Below are positions 2,761 through 51,647 of a DNA stretch of 64,000 bases, piece by piece. Both the position numbers and the translations under genes were made by a program. The notes beneath the pieces were generated by a model. The model had not been told where the DNA came from, did no database searches, and saw nothing but the letters and a program-made list of their open reading frames with translations. Source of the DNA: Parcubacteria group bacterium GW2011_GWA2_51_10 (GTDB lineage Bacteria; Patescibacteriota; Minisyncoccia; Phycocordibacterales; UBA2100). Position 1 is the stretch's first letter. The number at the start of each line of letters is the position of its first letter. Location: positions 2,324 through 66,323 of the forward strand of contig LCQS01000001.1 of NCBI GenBank assembly GCA_001004265.1, read 5' to 3'.

Positions 2761-2828
2761 CGCGGCAAGCCCCGTTAGAGACAAAAACGCGCTGCGAGCC
2801 CTCGCGGTCTCTAACGGGGCTTGCCGCG
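2761..2828. repeat. Perfect 22-bp inverted repeat containing the CCCGTTAGAG motif
   Basis: CGCGGCAAGCCCCGTTAGAGAC (2761-2782) and GTCTCTAACGGGGCTTGCCGCG (2807-2828), with a 24-nt loop. It lies in the divergent region between the DoxX-like and glycosidase genes. Confidence 0.85.
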
Positions 2829-2859: not shown

Positions 2860-3909
2860 ATGGATATTCTTCACGAGGTCCGCAAGCTTCTTGAAGAAAA
2901 TCGCCGCATCACGGACGGTCACCAGTACACCGTGCCCTCCGGCGATCATTACCCCTATCAATGGCTCTGGGATTCGTGTTTTCACGCCATCATCCTCGCG
3001 CAATATGACGTGGAATCTGCGAAGGCCGAGATACGATCGCTGCTTTCAAAGCAGTTCTCAAGCGGTCTTGTGCCCCACATCATCTATTGGGCGCCCGGCA
3101 TTCTCCACCTCTTCCGCTGGGGTGTGGAGGGCACCAGCTCTATAACTCAGCCGCCGATGATCGCATACGCCGCGTGGGAGATACATCGCCGCTCGGAGGA
3201 CACGCCGTTCCTTGCCTCTATCTTTCCTGCACTTATTGCTTACTATGATTTCTTACTTTCAGAGCGTGATCCGAATAGCCATCATCTTGCCAGCATTATT
3301 AGTCCGGATGAATCCGGTGAGGACAACTCGCCTCGCTTTGACGTTCCTCTCGGGGTAACTCCCGCTGTCTCACTCAAGGATCATCTCGCGAAACGTACTG
3401 AGCTTGTGGAGAAAAACAGAGAGTGCAATTTTGACGCGCGATACTGCATGCGGGATTTCTTTTGGGTGAAAGACGTGCTTTTTAATACGGTATTGGTGGA
3501 GAATCTGCGCGTGCTTGCGAAAATCGCTGCACATCTCAATAGAGGTGAGCACGAGAGAACTCTTCTACGAAATGCCGATGCGGTTGCCGGCGCAATGCGA
3601 GAGAAGATGTTTGAAGATGGTTGCGCGCGATTCGGCATACGTACAACCTCGCTTCATGAGATGTCGTACCGATCGCAGGCGGAAGCTTTTTCGTGGCGAG
3701 GACCAGTGTGGATCGGTGCTCATTGGTTTATCTATCGTGGGCTCAAACGATATGGGTTTACAGAGGAAGCCGCTGAAATTTGCGATAAAAGCAAGTTACT
3801 GCTTGAACGTTCCGGATTTCGCGAGTGCTTTAATCCGGAAACAGGAAAGGGGCTAGGTGCACACAATTTCACGTGGGGCGCTCTGGTTCTTGATATGATG
3901 GAACAGTGA
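2860..3909 (+). CDS. Six-hairpin glycoside hydrolase (GH63 / trehalase / debranching-enzyme C-domain-like)
   Basis: Motifs YPYQWLWDSCFHA and DESGEDNSPRFD are typical of (alpha/alpha)6 glucosidases. 349 aa. Confidence 0.6.
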   Translation: MDILHEVRKLLEENRRITDGHQYTVPSGDHYPYQWLWDSCFHAIILAQYDVESAKAEIRSLLSKQFSSGLVPHIIYWAPGILHLFRWGVEGTSSITQPPMIAYAAWEIHRRSEDTPFLASIFPALIAYYDFLLSERDPNSHHLASIISPDESGEDNSPRFDVPLGVTPAVSLKDHLAKRTELVEKNRECNFDARYCMRDFFWVKDVLFNTVLVENLRVLAKIAAHLNRGEHERTLLRNADAVAGAMREKMFEDGCARFGIRTTSLHEMSYRSQAEAFSWRGPVWIGAHWFIYRGLKRYGFTEEAAEICDKSKLLLERSGFRECFNPETGKGLGAHNFTWGALVLDMMEQ

Positions 3910-4102
3910 ATCCCGTTAGAGATGCTGCAATACATGATCGATATATGGTTAAGACTGAAGAATATTACATTGCGCATCAAGGTATCATGACAATAAACGG
4001 AAACGCCTAAACTAATTACATGCTTGACCGAATATGATCACTAAGCTCGATAGCGAATGCCATTGCGCTAATGCAATAGGCGCTTCCTATCTCTAACGGG
4101 AT
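3910..4102 (+). repeat. Long-range 14-bp perfect inverted repeat (CCCGTTAGAG family) clamping the glycosidase stop to the kinase start
   Basis: ATCCCGTTAGAGAT (3910-3923) starts 1 nt after TGA (3907-3909). ATCTCTAACGGGAT (4089-4102) ends on the AT of ATG (4101). Confidence 0.85.
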
Positions 4103-4949
4103 GAAGATCGCATTCGATATCGGCGGCACATCAATGCGCGTGGCGCTTGCTGCAGCTGATCGCGTCAGCGAAGCGCGCAGAATATTCACTCCGCAGGATC
4201 CGAAAGATGGTGTCAAAGCGCTCGCGAACCTAATGCGCGAATGCGCGGGAGATGAATCAATCGAAGCCGCAGTGGGCGGTTTCCCCGGCGTAGTGGGTGG
4301 TGGCGCAATTCAATACGCGCCCAATCTTCCGGAGTGGAAGGATGTCTTGCTTGCCGAGGAGCTTACGCGCGCGCTTGAGGCGCCCGTAGAGGTGTTGAAC
4401 GATGGAGACTGCGCCGCGCTCGGAGAGGCGGCGTACGGCGCAGGCAGAGGCGCACGTATTGTTGCTTATGTCGGCATCGGCACCGGTATCGGCTGCGGCC
4501 GCATAATAGATGGCCGCATCGACAGTGGTGTCTACGATTTAGAGGCGGGGCACCAGATCGTGGATGCAAAAGAAGGCAGGGAATTGGAGGAGCTCGTTTC
4601 CGGACGCGCTTTTGAGAAGCGTTATGGCGTCCATCCGAGCAAGGCACCGCGCGAAGGGTACTCGGAAATGACGCCCATTCTCGCCGCCGGACTTTACAAT
4701 ATGGTACTGCATTGGTCGCCCGAAGTTTTCGTGCTCGGAGGCGGAATGATGAACGAAAATAACGGCTATCGACTTCTCGATGTCGCATCGGCGCTTAAGC
4801 GCTTTTCCTCGCCTTATCCGAAACTTCCCGAGCTTCGTCTTGCAGAGCACAAAGACGCGTCAGGTTTATACGGCGCTCTCGCTCTCATGCAAAATCCGCA
4901 GATGGGGGTTTATCCGAAATTCGATAAACAACAGAGCCGACCTCTCTAA
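4101..4949 (+). CDS. ROK/ASKHA-family sugar kinase (glucokinase-like)
   Basis: MKIAFDIGGTSMRVAL phosphate-1 motif, LNDGDCAALGEA, GIGTGIGCG. The classic ROK CxCGxxGC zinc motif is not seen. Confidence 0.7.
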   Translation: MKIAFDIGGTSMRVALAAADRVSEARRIFTPQDPKDGVKALANLMRECAGDESIEAAVGGFPGVVGGGAIQYAPNLPEWKDVLLAEELTRALEAPVEVLNDGDCAALGEAAYGAGRGARIVAYVGIGTGIGCGRIIDGRIDSGVYDLEAGHQIVDAKEGRELEELVSGRAFEKRYGVHPSKAPREGYSEMTPILAAGLYNMVLHWSPEVFVLGGGMMNENNGYRLLDVASALKRFSSPYPKLPELRLAEHKDASGLYGALALMQNPQMGVYPKFDKQQSRPL

Positions 4950-7065: not shown

Positions 7066-7150
7066 GTAGTAAGTAGTAAGTAGTAAGTAGTAATTCAAAC
7101 GAGCAAATTAGACGATACCTACTAACTACTTTCTACTAACTACTAACTAG
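7063..7150 (+). repeat. Heptad-phased stop-codon module pair: (TAAGTAG)x4 plus complementary CTACTAA-type arm
   Basis: GTAG at 7066, 7073, 7080 and 7087. CTAC at 7119, 7126, 7133 and 7140, then CTAG at 7147. It starts on the mraZ TAA and ends on the rsmH GTG. Confidence 0.9.
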
Positions 7151-8571: not shown

Positions 8572-10296
8572 ATGCCGCAGACAGCAAAGAGTAGATTACG
8601 CAATCGCGCCCGCATACTTTCCGGCATATTCATATTGGTCGCAGGGTTTCTCATTGTGCGACTGTATTTTGTGCAGATCATCCACGGTGATAAATTCGCG
8701 CGCGATGCAATGGGGCAATATGTCGCGCCCGCGCCGGATACGCAGGAGCGCGGGTCAATTTTTTTCACTCGCAACGATGGCGCCTCGGTCGCAGCCGCTG
8801 TCATGCAATCGGGATGGCGCATTGCTATTCAACCAAAAAGCTTAACGGACCCCGCGGCAATATATGAAAAACTAAATGGCCTCACTCCCATAGATAGGGA
8901 GCGCTTTTTTGGCAGCGCGGATAAGACAGGCGACCCGTATGAAGAAGTGGCATTCAAGGTTCCCGACGACGCGGCGAGCGCTATTCGCGCAAAAAAGATT
9001 TCGGGCATCATTCTTGTGCGGGACGAGTGGCGCTACTATCCCGCGGGCGCGCTCGCCGCACACACGGTTGGGTTTGTCGGTTATAAGGGCGATACAAAAA
9101 CGGGCGTGTACGGGCTTGAGCGCAGCTGGCAGGACACGCTCACGCGCACATCGAGAGATCACTACGTCAATCCATTCGCAGAGATTTTCACGAACGTTGG
9201 CGATTTATTCGCGAGCGATCCGAGTGGACGGCAGGGAGATATCATCACTTCGATAGAGCCGGCCGTGGAGAAGGAGTTGGAAGAGGCGCTCGAAGAAGTG
9301 CGAGAAAAATACGATGCAAAAATTGTCGGCGGGATCGTCATGAATCCGCGAACAGGCGAGATTATCGCGCTCGGCGCGAAGCCGGACTTCAATCCGAATA
9401 CGTACAATCTCGTTTCCGACATTGCCATATTTTCTAACCCGCTCGTGGAAAATATTTACGAGATGGGCTCCATCATGAAGCCCCTCACTGTTGCAGCGGG
9501 AATTGACGCCGGCGCCATCAGGCCCGAGAGCATCTATGAAGATAGGGGATTCATCATGCGAAGCGGTAAGAAAATATCAAATTTTGACGGAAAGGCGCGG
9601 GGAGTTGTTAGCATGCAAGAGGTACTCAATCAGTCGCTTAATACGGGCGCGGCCTTTATTGCGGAAAAGACGGGACATTCGGTTTTTTCGGATTACATCC
9701 ATGCGGCGGGATTGGGCGAAAAAACGGGAATCGATCTGCCGAATGAATCGGCAGGATTAATTCGCGCAATAGAGGGCGGGACAGATGTGGACTATGCTTC
9801 AGCTTCGTTTGGGCAGGGAATAGCGTTTTCTCCCATTGCGATGGTGCGTGCGCTTTCTGCGCTTGCCAATGGCGGAGCGATACCAGTACCGCATATTGTG
9901 ACCGCAATTCGCTATCAGAGCGGCGTTGTGAAAAAAATTCCTGTTGCGGAGCAGAGACAAGTTTTCAAGCCGGAGACTGCCGAGACCGTAACACGCATGC
10001 TTACGACCGTGTACGACAAGGCACTTTTGGACGGCGAGCTTCGTGAAGAGCGCTACTCGATCGCGGCAAAGACGGGCACGGCGCAGATTGCGGTTCCCGG
10101 CGGCGCGGGATACTACGACGATCGTTATTTGCACTCATTCTTCGGATACTTTCCCGCGCATGATCCGCAGTTCATCGTATTTCTGTATGCCCTCGAGCCG
10201 CGCGGCGAATTGTATGCCTCGCGCACGCTCGCGCGCCCCTTCCATGAGATCGCGAAGTTTTTGATAAATTACTACGAAATCCCGCCGGATAGATAG
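8572..10296 (+). CDS. ftsI: Class B penicillin-binding protein / peptidoglycan D,D-transpeptidase
   Basis: N-terminal TM, PBP dimerisation domain, SxxK = SIMK, SxN = SLN, KTG = KTGTA. Confidence 0.88.
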   Translation: MPQTAKSRLRNRARILSGIFILVAGFLIVRLYFVQIIHGDKFARDAMGQYVAPAPDTQERGSIFFTRNDGASVAAAVMQSGWRIAIQPKSLTDPAAIYEKLNGLTPIDRERFFGSADKTGDPYEEVAFKVPDDAASAIRAKKISGIILVRDEWRYYPAGALAAHTVGFVGYKGDTKTGVYGLERSWQDTLTRTSRDHYVNPFAEIFTNVGDLFASDPSGRQGDIITSIEPAVEKELEEALEEVREKYDAKIVGGIVMNPRTGEIIALGAKPDFNPNTYNLVSDIAIFSNPLVENIYEMGSIMKPLTVAAGIDAGAIRPESIYEDRGFIMRSGKKISNFDGKARGVVSMQEVLNQSLNTGAAFIAEKTGHSVFSDYIHAAGLGEKTGIDLPNESAGLIRAIEGGTDVDYASASFGQGIAFSPIAMVRALSALANGGAIPVPHIVTAIRYQSGVVKKIPVAEQRQVFKPETAETVTRMLTTVYDKALLDGELREERYSIAAKTGTAQIAVPGGAGYYDDRYLHSFFGYFPAHDPQFIVFLYALEPRGELYASRTLARPFHEIAKFLINYYEIPPDR

Positions 10297-21275: not shown

Positions 21276-23136
<1,861 letters not shown>

Positions 23137-23138
<2 letters not shown>

Positions 23139-23423: not shown

Positions 23424-23452
23424 CTACTAACTACTTTCTACTAGCTAAGGAA
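23424..23452 (+). repeat. Heptad-phased CTAC module upstream of the RNHCP gene
   Basis: CTAC at 23424, 23431 and 23438, and CTAA at 23445, followed by the AAGGA SD and the ATG at 23453. Confidence 0.75.
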
Positions 23453-32000: not shown

Positions 32001-32031
32001 CCCCGTTAGAGGCGAAGCTCTCTAAATGGGG
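32001..32031 (+). repeat. Degenerate CCCGTTAGAG-family hairpin just after the ychF stop
   Basis: CCCCGTTAGAG (32001-32011) faces CTCTAAATGGGG (32020-32031); the arms are imperfectly complementary. Confidence 0.6.
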
Positions 32032-50181: not shown

Positions 50182-51533
50182 AACGCGGCAATAGCGGCAT
50201 CTATTCTTCGGAGCGCTGCATCCCGGCCGATCACGGAGGCGATCACGAATGGGTCTGGTGAGCGCTCTTTCCCACTCAAGGCATATCGAAGCGGCCACAG
50301 AACTTTGCCGCGGCCCTCGTGTGTCGCGTATTCCCATACAGCATCCTTTAGACGTTCGGGCAGAGAAAAGATTTCAGGCTCTGCGGCAGACAATTTGTCG
50401 TGCAGCGTCGTGAGATGGCGGCGCGCTTCGCCCGCGCCGCTTCCTTTCTCCGGGATTTTGGCAGAAACAAGAGTCGGGTCGGAAAAGAAGTAATCAAATT
50501 CGCCATTTGTCACGAGAGAGCCGACATCGCTCCAGACACTTATACGCTCGTGCACAATTGGCGCGAGCTTGCGACCGATTTCGGGATCCCACAGCAGCTT
50601 GCGAGCCGCGACATACTTTTCTAATTCCACTTGCGCGGTCGCCTCAAATTCTTCGCGTGGCATTTGCAGAAGATACTGTCTGTTGAACCAGCGCAGCTTC
50701 TCGATATCGAAGACGGCACCGCTTTTATGCACATCCGAGATATCAAATTCCTGCACCATCTCGCCGAGTGAGAGAATTTCTTTTCCCGACGGCGGCGTCC
50801 AGCCGAGGGTGGCGACGTAATTGAGGAGCGCTTGCGGCAAAAATCCCGCCTCTCTGTAGCTGCGGACAGATACATCGCCCGTTCTTTTTGACAATTTCGC
50901 TCTGTCGCTTCCTAGATGGAGTGGGTAATGCGCGTAGAGCGGCCGCTCTACACCGAGGGCCTCCTGGATCAGAATTTGGCGCGGTGTATTTGAGATGTGA
51001 TCATCCCCGCGAATCACGTGCGTGATTCGCATGAGAGCGTCGTCAACAACCACTGCAAAGTGATACAGCGCCTCGGATAGCGAGCGCGCAATAACGAAAT
51101 CTCCAAGCTCTCTCGTGTCGAAGGTTATGTCACCGCGGATGAGGTCGGTGAATGTTATAAGAGTGCCGGGATTTTTAAGCCGGACGACATGAAGCATTTT
51201 GCCCGGTTCCTTTTTGCTCTCTTCTTCAGAAATATACGCACTCTTCTCGCTGACGAGCCGATCCAGCTCGTGGCTATAGATCTCGGTCCTCTCCGATTGG
51301 CGGTAAAACTCATCCCAATCGAGCCCAATCCAATGAAGGGAGTCGATAATGTCGGCCTCGTACTCTCCCTTGCTGCGTTCTCTATCGGTATCCTCGCTTC
51401 GGAAGACGATCGTGCCTTTGTGTTTGCGAGCAAAGAGATAATTCAATATCGCCATGCGAGCTGTCCCGACATGGCAGTAACCCGTTGGACTCGGCGGAAA
51501 ACGTACACGCACCTCGTTCATTCCAAGATTCAT
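50178..51533 (-). CDS. gltX: Glutamyl-tRNA synthetase
   Basis: RFPPSPTGYCHVGTAR (HIGH region), KLSKR (KMSKS). Start placed at the Met of MNLGMNEVRVRF (51533), not at the ORF-track 51584. Confidence 0.9.
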   Translation of the reverse strand: MNLGMNEVRVRFPPSPTGYCHVGTARMAILNYLFARKHKGTIVFRSEDTDRERSKGEYEADIIDSLHWIGLDWDEFYRQSERTEIYSHELDRLVSEKSAYISEEESKKEPGKMLHVVRLKNPGTLITFTDLIRGDITFDTRELGDFVIARSLSEALYHFAVVVDDALMRITHVIRGDDHISNTPRQILIQEALGVERPLYAHYPLHLGSDRAKLSKRTGDVSVRSYREAGFLPQALLNYVATLGWTPPSGKEILSLGEMVQEFDISDVHKSGAVFDIEKLRWFNRQYLLQMPREEFEATAQVELEKYVAARKLLWDPEIGRKLAPIVHERISVWSDVGSLVTNGEFDYFFSDPTLVSAKIPEKGSGAGEARRHLTTLHDKLSAAEPEIFSLPERLKDAVWEYATHEGRGKVLWPLRYALSGKERSPDPFVIASVIGRDAALRRIDAAIAAL

Positions 51534-51647
51534 CCCGTTAGAAGCAGGGCGCGGCCGAGTACTGCTTTTCTTGTGCCACGTCATAAATATATATTATCCA
51601 TTACTCAAGTATCCAGATAATTACGCGTCCGCGGCTTCTAACGGGAT
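51532..51647 (-). repeat. Long-range 14-bp perfect inverted repeat (CCCGTTAGA family) clamping the murG stop to the gltX start
   Basis: ATCCCGTTAGAAGC (51532-51545) and GCTTCTAACGGGAT (51634-51647). In gene orientation the first arm begins on the A of the murG TGA and the second ends on the AT of the gltX ATG. Confidence 0.85.

Follow-up and report, generated by a model that had tools for sequence, protein, structure and literature searches.

Correia repeats (NEMIS) of Neisseria and the ERIC/IRU repeats of enterobacteria are miniature transposable elements of the inverted-repeat type (MITEs), about 100-150 bp long and bounded by terminal inverted repeats, like the family described here. They lie in transcribed intergenic regions, are co-transcribed with their neighbours and form long hairpins. 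Both duplicate TA, and their repeats are longer. We know of no report of either being placed precisely on a start codon or rebuilding one. In this study, a family of short paired repeats was analysed in a 64,000-nt stretch of the genome of Parcubacteria group bacterium GW2011_GWA2_51_10 (contig LCQS01000001.1, positions 2,324 to 66,323; hereafter the window). The family is a previously undescribed small mobile element, a MITE, of Kaiserbacteria with an unusual start-codon niche. It differs from the Correia and ERIC elements in its 13-bp repeat, its 4-bp T..A duplication and its near-exclusive placement at start and stop codons. Kaiserbacteria are ultra-small groundwater bacteria and part of the Candidate Phyla Radiation (CPR). 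By exact protein match, the murG region lies on metagenome contigs from groundwater of the Rifle project, and its homologues carry the names Candidatus Kaiserbacteria or Parcubacteria. CPR genomes are regarded as streamlined, and a widespread, apparently still mobile MITE family alters that picture. Full-text literature searches returned no description of MITEs in CPR/Patescibacteria, and a literature string search for the motif returned primers only. Patescibacteria go unmentioned in a large census of MITEs from 2024, whose bacterial genomes came from RefSeq. The phrase 'start codon' is never used in a 2024 review of prokaryotic MITEs (PMC10969869).

The 9-mer core CCCGTTAGA occurs seven times in the window against 0.37 expected, and none of 100 shuffles reached seven. 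Variants with one mismatch were at background (11 additional copies vs 9.9 expected in total). The seven cores form three perfect inverted pairs and one degenerate hairpin. None of the four sites falls within an open reading frame (ORF), and coding sequence makes up about 88% of the window. An earlier reading of the letters alone (the sequence-only reading) had reported an inverted-repeat family with at least seven exact copies of the 9-mer; this holds, the family is non-random and confined to gene junctions, and the expectation was recomputed to the value above. At the glycosidase-kinase junction, the repeat finder gave the arms ATCCCGTTAGAGAT (3910-3923) and ATCTCTAACGGGAT (4089-4102), which are complementary at 14/14 positions with 165 nt between them. 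ATCCCGTTAGAGAT stands directly 3' of the glycosidase TGA (3907-3909), and ATCTCTAACGGGAT overlaps the ATG of the ROK kinase. At the murG-gltX junction, on the minus strand, the arms are ATCCCGTTAGAAGC (51647-51634) and GCTTCTAACGGGAT (51545-51532), again 14/14 complementary, with 88 nt between them. ATCCCGTTAGAAGC overlaps the murG TGA, and GCTTCTAACGGGAT ends on the gltX ATG. By Pfam, the flanking genes encode a GH63-like hydrolase (the glycosidase), a ROK kinase, MurG and GltX, and YchF at a further site. The coordinates, complementarity and distances first given for these stems, which tie a stop codon to the next start codon, were reproduced at both junctions. The claim of 14-bp stems stands as to pairing (14/14), but only 13 bp of each stem belong to the conserved repeat. 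Pair 14 joins the last A of the left TGAA to the first T of the right TGAA and comes from the target-site duplication. The parts of the two elements, called B and D, are as follows.

3907..3910, plus strand: left duplication copy TGAA of element B; 3907-3909 is the glycosidase stop codon
3906-3908, plus strand: displaced old kinase start GTG, overlapping the left TGAA of element B
3911..4101, plus strand: element B, a 191-nt MITE with terminal inverted repeats at 3911-3923 (TCCCGTTAGAGAT) and 4089-4101 (ATCTCTAACGGGA)
4101, plus strand: last base of element B (A4101), which is the A of the ROK kinase ATG
4102..4105, plus strand: right duplication copy TGAA of element B; its TG completes the kinase start codon
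51647..51649, minus strand: left duplication copy TGA of element D (gene orientation), which is the murG stop codon
51650-51648, minus strand: old gltX ATG, in an ATGA overlap with the murG stop
51533..51646, minus strand: element D, a 114-nt MITE with terminal inverted repeats at 51646-51634 (TCCCGTTAGAAGC) and 51545-51533 (GCTTCTAACGGGA)
51533, minus strand: base of element D that is the A of the gltX ATG
51530..51532, minus strand: right duplication copy TGA of element D, comprising TG from the gltX ATG and the base that follows
51533..51646, minus strand: subfamily traits of element D, in which CGCGGAC/G(C)CCGCG forms a second helix and the 3' arm has a 4-nt bulge
51596-51591 and 51584-51582, minus strand: TAATAT, a 6-nt spacer and an ATG inside element D, open and in frame with gltX

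Metagenomes were scanned for two 9-mers placed 72-102 nt apart, and the matches listed fell on more than 120 contigs. The anatomy set consisted of 128 unique raw copies among these matches, selected by the two 9-mers alone; the counts of repeats and flanks below refer to them. The terminal inverted repeat is YCCCGTTAGANNN, of the form 5'-(T/C)CCCGTTAGA-NNN. It is exactly 13 bp long because pairing at position 14 was at background, and thus exceeds the 10 bp taken as the minimum for a MITE. Positions 2-10, the selected 9-mer, are invariant. Positions 1 and 11-13 formed Watson-Crick pairs in 101-125 of the 128 copies, compared with 43-68 for shuffled partners, and up to four Watson-Crick pair types occurred at these positions. 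Conservation and covariation of the arms in relatives, which the sequence-only reading had proposed as a check, were therefore found. Among the mispaired bases at positions 11-13, G-T wobbles (16) were not favoured over other mismatches (28), so there is no specific pointer to RNA-level selection.

The 4-nt flanks were identical on both sides in 78/128 copies, whereas shuffling gave a mean of 12.6 and a maximum of 23. The duplication has the form T-N-N-A. TGAA/TTCA was the commonest, followed by TAAA/TTTA, TGGA, TTGA/TCAA and TGTA; TATA, TAGA and CTTG also occurred, each the same on both sides of its copy. Elements B and D carry the duplications TGAA and TGA. Six tandem pairs were spaced by exactly the 4-nt repeat (L091:615-800, L111:3080-3307, L118:2685-2928, L120:2306-2493, L188:272-453 and L193:11-118). 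This spacing indicates that a regenerated target was probably struck again. Copies are about 50-190 nt long, with a mode of about 95-122 nt. They are small, non-coding and multi-copy, with four in the window, copies at about 10 of 80 relative loci and the metagenome contigs mentioned above. Both Kaiserbacteria genomes and metagenomes commonly carry the family.

Two subfamilies were distinguished. Members of the element D subfamily (112-121 nt) have the 13-bp repeat as helix 1, a conserved 4-nt bulge WCCT on the 3' arm, and a second helix CGCGGW/WCCGCG that carries compensatory changes. The second subfamily, CCCCGTTAGAAAGG...GGGCTTTCTAACGGGG, duplicates TAAA, nearly always preceded by G (GTAAA), and has no start-codon tie. 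Its right flank is often TAAAGG or TAAAGA, and it has one orientation relative to the target (11/11). Examples of this subfamily, which was seen on contigs in the range L084-L202, are L113:1261-1361, L119:7382-7482 and L156:11392-11492.

Screening one genome for each species with MurG yielded 80 Kaiserbacteria-like loci, and the murG-gltX gene order was kept in 80/80. The junction was empty in 63 of them, where murG and gltX touch or overlap; the typical sequence is ...GTATGA, in which the gltX ATG lies over the murG TGA. The window has ...GTATGA, then the element, then TGAATC..., that is, a 114-nt insertion with the direct repeat TGA. Two public assemblies (L001 and L002) were identical across element D. 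The GH63-ROK junction was empty in L206, L207 and L208, whose kinases are 68-69% identical; it reads ...GG(A/G)ATGAAGATC, with a TGA/ATG overlap (ATGA). The window has ...CAGTGAA, then 191 nt, then TGAAGATC... at this place. Element B was present with two substitutions in the close relative L204. In L203 (kinase 81% identical) there is an orthologous 60-nt version, which has the left 40 nt and both 10-nt cores in common and has lost the outer arm pairing. Filled and empty orthologous sites thus exist for both window junctions. The paired motif was also found at other, differing junctions in the roughly 10 of 80 loci counted above, and L077 and L009 carry separate same-family insertions at or adjoining the murG-gltX site.

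The murG-gltX junction is a hotspot for several MITE-like families. It is also occupied by other palindromic insertions with ATGA/TATGA-type direct repeats (L006:8247-8376, L010:11144-11270, L022:2511-2646, L012:11144-11228 and L065:11141-11227). One other family at this junction, CCCCATGAGAG...CTCTCACGGGG, is 1-2 bases off the present core.

The target-site duplications, the empty sites and the tandem re-insertions indicate that the arms arrived by transposition. We are highly confident that the feature is an insertion derived from a transposon, bearing inverted repeats and flanked by a duplication. Elements B and D are independent insertions into junctions where an upstream TGA overlapped a downstream ATG or GTG. 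The spacers of the two junctions have no evident similarity beyond the arms, as had been observed before, but the conclusion then drawn, that they are not MITE copies, fails on the terminal repeats, the duplications, the empty sites and the tandems, and on the hundreds of copies located at unrelated places in other genomes. The shared 'design' of a stop tied to a start was likewise misread: it is a by-product of insertion at TGA(A) within an ATGA overlap. The tie arises because the left TGA(A) stays a stop and the right copy, placed after the terminal A or G of the element, forms ATG or GTG. With the left stop kept and the start rebuilt, the encoded proteins are unchanged, and the element's ends pair stop to start.

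All copies have A or G as their last base, and 40/40 TGAA-flanked copies end on ATG or GTG. In 35/40 the ORF begun by the rebuilt codon has at least 60 codons or is truncated at a contig end; the remaining five ORFs have 7-56 codons. The displaced left codon is ATG in 52/54 copies and GTG in 2/54. In the same loci, predicted gene starts account for 310 of 1,298 non-genic ATGAA sites (about 24%). Target preference and loss of intragenic insertions are insufficient to explain the start-codon bias. Among 50 copies, 12 lie at stop/start overlaps within operons and 38 lie ahead of first genes.

Shine-Dalgarno-like motifs are almost absent upstream of the window genes. In 719 Kaiserbacteria genes with non-coding upstream sequence, -10-like hexamers peaked exactly 6 nt before the start (58 vs a background of about 2-3). 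This implies that leaderless mRNAs are probably widespread in Kaiserbacteria, and large-scale leaderless translation in this group becomes directly testable. At first-gene insertions, 17/38 copies have a -10 box 6-7 nt ahead of the old ATG, and none has one at this distance from the new ATG. A -10 box of the GATAnAAT type, exactly 6 nt before the ATG, stands at many genes, for example at 2860, 21680, 52789(-), 55419(-) and 60009(-) in the window and in L003-L082.

The frame of the old ATG was followed through the elements. It passes through the left repeat (CCC GTT AGA) open in every copy. Across the whole element it is open in 24/50 unique copies, compared with 7.2 +/- 2.3 (maximum 16) in composition-preserving shuffles. 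The control frames were open in 10/50 (other forward frames) and in 6/50 and 12/50 (reverse frames). The open frame ends at -7 in 12 copies, on a TAA of the right repeat that lies 4 nt ahead of the new start, and at +1 in 11 copies, on a TGA that overlaps the new ATG. Of the copies whose length would fuse the old ATG in frame to the gene, 10/11 have a closed frame; the sole open fusion is L077. After related copies were collapsed, 14/28 clusters had an open through-frame. Both window copies belong to the in-frame length class and have an early stop, after 9 codons in element D and after 34 codons in element B. From these counts we infer that selection may favour translating the hairpin and then reinitiating at the rebuilt start, and may act against N-terminal fusion.

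In this study, we believe that a start-codon-inserting MITE family, together with the following steps of movement, survival and reinitiation, is the best explanation as a whole and a highly probable one. Movement would be cut-and-paste by a transposase that makes a 4-bp staggered cut. Copies would persist almost solely at start codons, where insertion just past the start would spare the promoter and the initiating AUG. The host mRNAs would be largely leaderless, with the -10 box 6 nt before the ATG. A ribosome from the old AUG would read the short frame through the element and melt the hairpin. It would then halt 4 nt short of the new start, on the TAA inside the right repeat, or on the overlapping TGA, and would reinitiate at the rebuilt codon. 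At the window copies B and D, the ribosome of the upstream gene would, at its stop, melt the 5' arm and free the start, which comes near the occlusion proposed by the sequence-only reading; in element D the start might also be released via the internal ATG at 51584. We regard the termination-reinitiation mechanism itself as a serious candidate, somewhat short of probable. If copies are tolerated by way of a translated upstream frame, the family would offer a natural experiment in which leaderless initiation and reinitiation can be studied, in bacteria that cannot yet be cultured alone.

Several observations weigh against this explanation. No autonomous element or transposase was seen, nor any repeat pair 0.4-6 kb apart enclosing one in about 3 Mb of loci; the transposase search was limited to contigs chosen for short copies and to the window ORFs checked, which makes this weak negative evidence. 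Repeat pairs of 0.4-6 kb with matching flanks proved to be neighbouring separate MITEs or segmental duplication, and orphan ends gave nothing. The window ORFs checked are housekeeping genes. Copies appear to be locked in one orientation towards the asymmetric target (element D subfamily, 18/18; GTAAA subfamily, 11/11), which is unusual for a transposon with symmetric ends. The interiors of copies within one genome are almost unrelated, unlike those of a recent master-copy burst, and the perfect covariation of the arms is not explained by simple transposase recognition. Half of the copies, including both window copies, have no through-frame, so reinitiation cannot be the whole story. The copies are also phylogenetically related, and the shuffle statistics therefore overstate independence.

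We put forward only tentatively a more specific form of the start-codon-inserting MITE, namely a lineage specialised for leaderless-mRNA genomes, in which obligatory termination-reinitiation through a translated hairpin would keep gene expression intact and integration would be hairpin-based and orientation-specific in a way undescribed for inverted-end bacterial elements. Integration would occur at transcript positions +2 to +5, within the TG of the start codon and the two bases after it. Three frame outcomes would follow: a TAA 4 nt early, an overlapping TGA, and an in-frame fusion that would be selected against. The orientation lock and the concerted evolution of the arms would reflect the hairpin-based integration.

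The stems could also be a purpose-built RNA device, in which a long-range stem hides the next start codon as a switch or an RNase III site and internal promoters give unstructured transcripts. The predicted folds of both read-through RNAs fit this, as the perfect terminal stem encloses the whole spacer and pairs the AUG (Z -1.87 and -3.05); in this modelled form, the pairing of the start codon proposed by the sequence-only reading was seen at both junctions. The arms covary across genomes, and the spacer of element D holds a -10-like box and an ATG. RNase III is known to cleave Correia elements within the inverted repeats, and these elements can alter expression (PMC10969869). However, the duplications, empty sites and tandems show that the arms came by transposition, and the wobble counts at positions 11-13 do not favour RNA pairing. 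The L203 orthologue persists although pairing outside the 10-nt core is lost. Sigma-70 promoter and terminator scans of both window spacers were at chance level, and an internal -10 box followed by 5-8 nt and an in-frame ATG was present in 1/52 elements, element D alone. A family-wide internal leaderless restart is ruled out by the same count. An Rfam scan of the window at the gathering score returned tRNAs only, and permissive scans of elements B and D gave just one sub-threshold generic hairpin match; a curated structured RNA was rejected for want of a model match at either threshold. We consider a purpose-built device unlikely, and an RNA effect may exist as a secondary consequence of insertion.

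A single-strand palindromic element of the IS200/IS605 or REP/RAYT type would move as a single-stranded DNA hairpin by an HUH transposase and insert in one orientation beside a specific target of 4-5 nt; its flanks would be that target and a matching right cleavage site instead of a fill-in duplication. Such an element would account for the orientation locked to an asymmetric target, for the extragenic location and for arms that evolve in concert, as expected of a hairpin substrate. However, the flanking 4-mer differs among copies yet matches across each, which fits a staggered-cut duplication, and C...G-type copies have ATGAA on the left and G then TGAA on the right, so that exactly 4 bp are repeated. 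The family has true terminal inverted repeats, unlike the subterminal hairpins without duplication expected of REP/BIME or IS200/IS605-derived elements, and no TnpA or RAYT gene was seen. We hold this origin to be very improbable. An inverton, in which 13-14-bp inverted repeats bound a promoter segment that a site-specific recombinase flips for phase-variable expression, shares with the present loci the short repeats around AT-rich segments of 88-165 bp just upstream of genes, as well as a motif common to several loci; the window even encodes an Xer-like tyrosine recombinase. But every public assembly retrieved (L001, L002 and L204) has one spacer orientation, 18/18 members of the element D subfamily keep one orientation towards the gene, and the targets downstream, gltX and murG, are essential housekeeping genes. 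The inverton was rejected on the fixed orientation and the duplications, with empty sites also present, and we give it almost no chance. In integron attC sites, the 5' end carries RYYYAAC and the 3' end GTTRRRY. Here the core order is reversed (GTTAGAR ... YTCTAAC) and the last base is not Y, and an attC site was rejected.

Termination-reinitiation is known at ATGA overlaps, and in the leader of the cauliflower mosaic virus (CaMV) 35S RNA ribosomes are shunted across a hairpin base, which is a eukaryotic viral mechanism. By analogy, the start-codon-inserting MITE may resemble both, as a short ORF ends at or near the next start and the stem places the points of take-off and landing close to each other. 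A translational bypass like that of T4 gene 60 was dropped, there being no stop directly after the take-off codon. The Rickettsia palindromic elements (RPE) are palindromic selfish DNA in a reduced genome and are tolerated through a translation-compatible frame (PMC10969869). RPE are in frame and translated within the host protein, whereas the Kaiserbacteria family avoids fusion (open in 1/11), and the element would be translated as an upstream frame of its own, ending where the start codon is rebuilt.

PiggyBac moves through hairpin intermediates with footprint-free excision (PMC5861402), and IS1380 is the prokaryotic outgroup of piggyBac (PMC10813416). The 13-bp piggyBac repeat CCCTAGAAAGATA and the repeat CCCCGTTAGAAAG of many Kaiserbacteria copies both begin with CCC, and both families have a 4-bp T...A duplication. 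The duplication is TTAA in piggyBac and TGAA/TAAA-like here, and TTAA was never seen among the listed copies. To our knowledge, piggyBac has no start-codon bias. The resemblance to piggyBac/IS1380 is a lead; the repeat similarity is short and could be due to chance.

The family also produces annotation errors. Public gene calls begin gltX at the in-frame ATG 51584 inside element D, which gives 468 residues instead of 451, and gltX orthologues support the ATG at 51533 as the start. The TAATAT-to-ATG geometry inside element D is the promoter-to-ATG spacing of the lineage. The 17-residue extension of GltX is probably an annotation artefact of the insertion; alternatively, the ATG at 51584 could be a secondary leaderless start.

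The two remaining sites in the window, a perfect 22-bp hairpin and a degenerate hairpin after the ychF stop, were both found where the sequence-only reading had placed them.

2770..2819, strand undefined: element A, a 50-nt member within the perfect 22-bp palindrome 2761-2828
32001..32031, plus strand: element C, a degenerate 31-nt hairpin (CCCCGTTAGAG-GCGAAG-CTCTCTAAATGGGG) 10 nt after the ychF stop

The flanks of element A are inverted 9-bp copies (CGCGGCAAG and CTTGCCGCG) without a direct duplication. The element is missing in the close relative L204 (L204:3550-3600), where just the right flank CTTGTCGCG is present, and it is located at a synteny breakpoint relative to L204. We suspect a fold-back event or an element-mediated rearrangement, as this arrangement suggests. 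Element C has no target-site duplication and is a decayed relic.

A 14-mer scan of viral contigs gave 108 matches, estimated at about chance, with real copies on L262 (IMG/VR viral) alone. The copies on L262 belong to the start-codon class and lie at 4733-4777 and 9058-9117 on the minus strand. L262 may come from a CPR phage, or it may be a CPR contig put in the wrong class.

Other repeats of the window are rich in stop codons. The strings TAGTAAGTAGAAAGTAG and CTACTAACTACT recur intergenically as imperfect inverted repeats (23062-23137 and 23424-23447). Repeats of this type also stand directly upstream of the starts at 7150, 14692, 18324, 43431 and 46738(-), and similar strings occur in spacers of the relatives L061 and L078.

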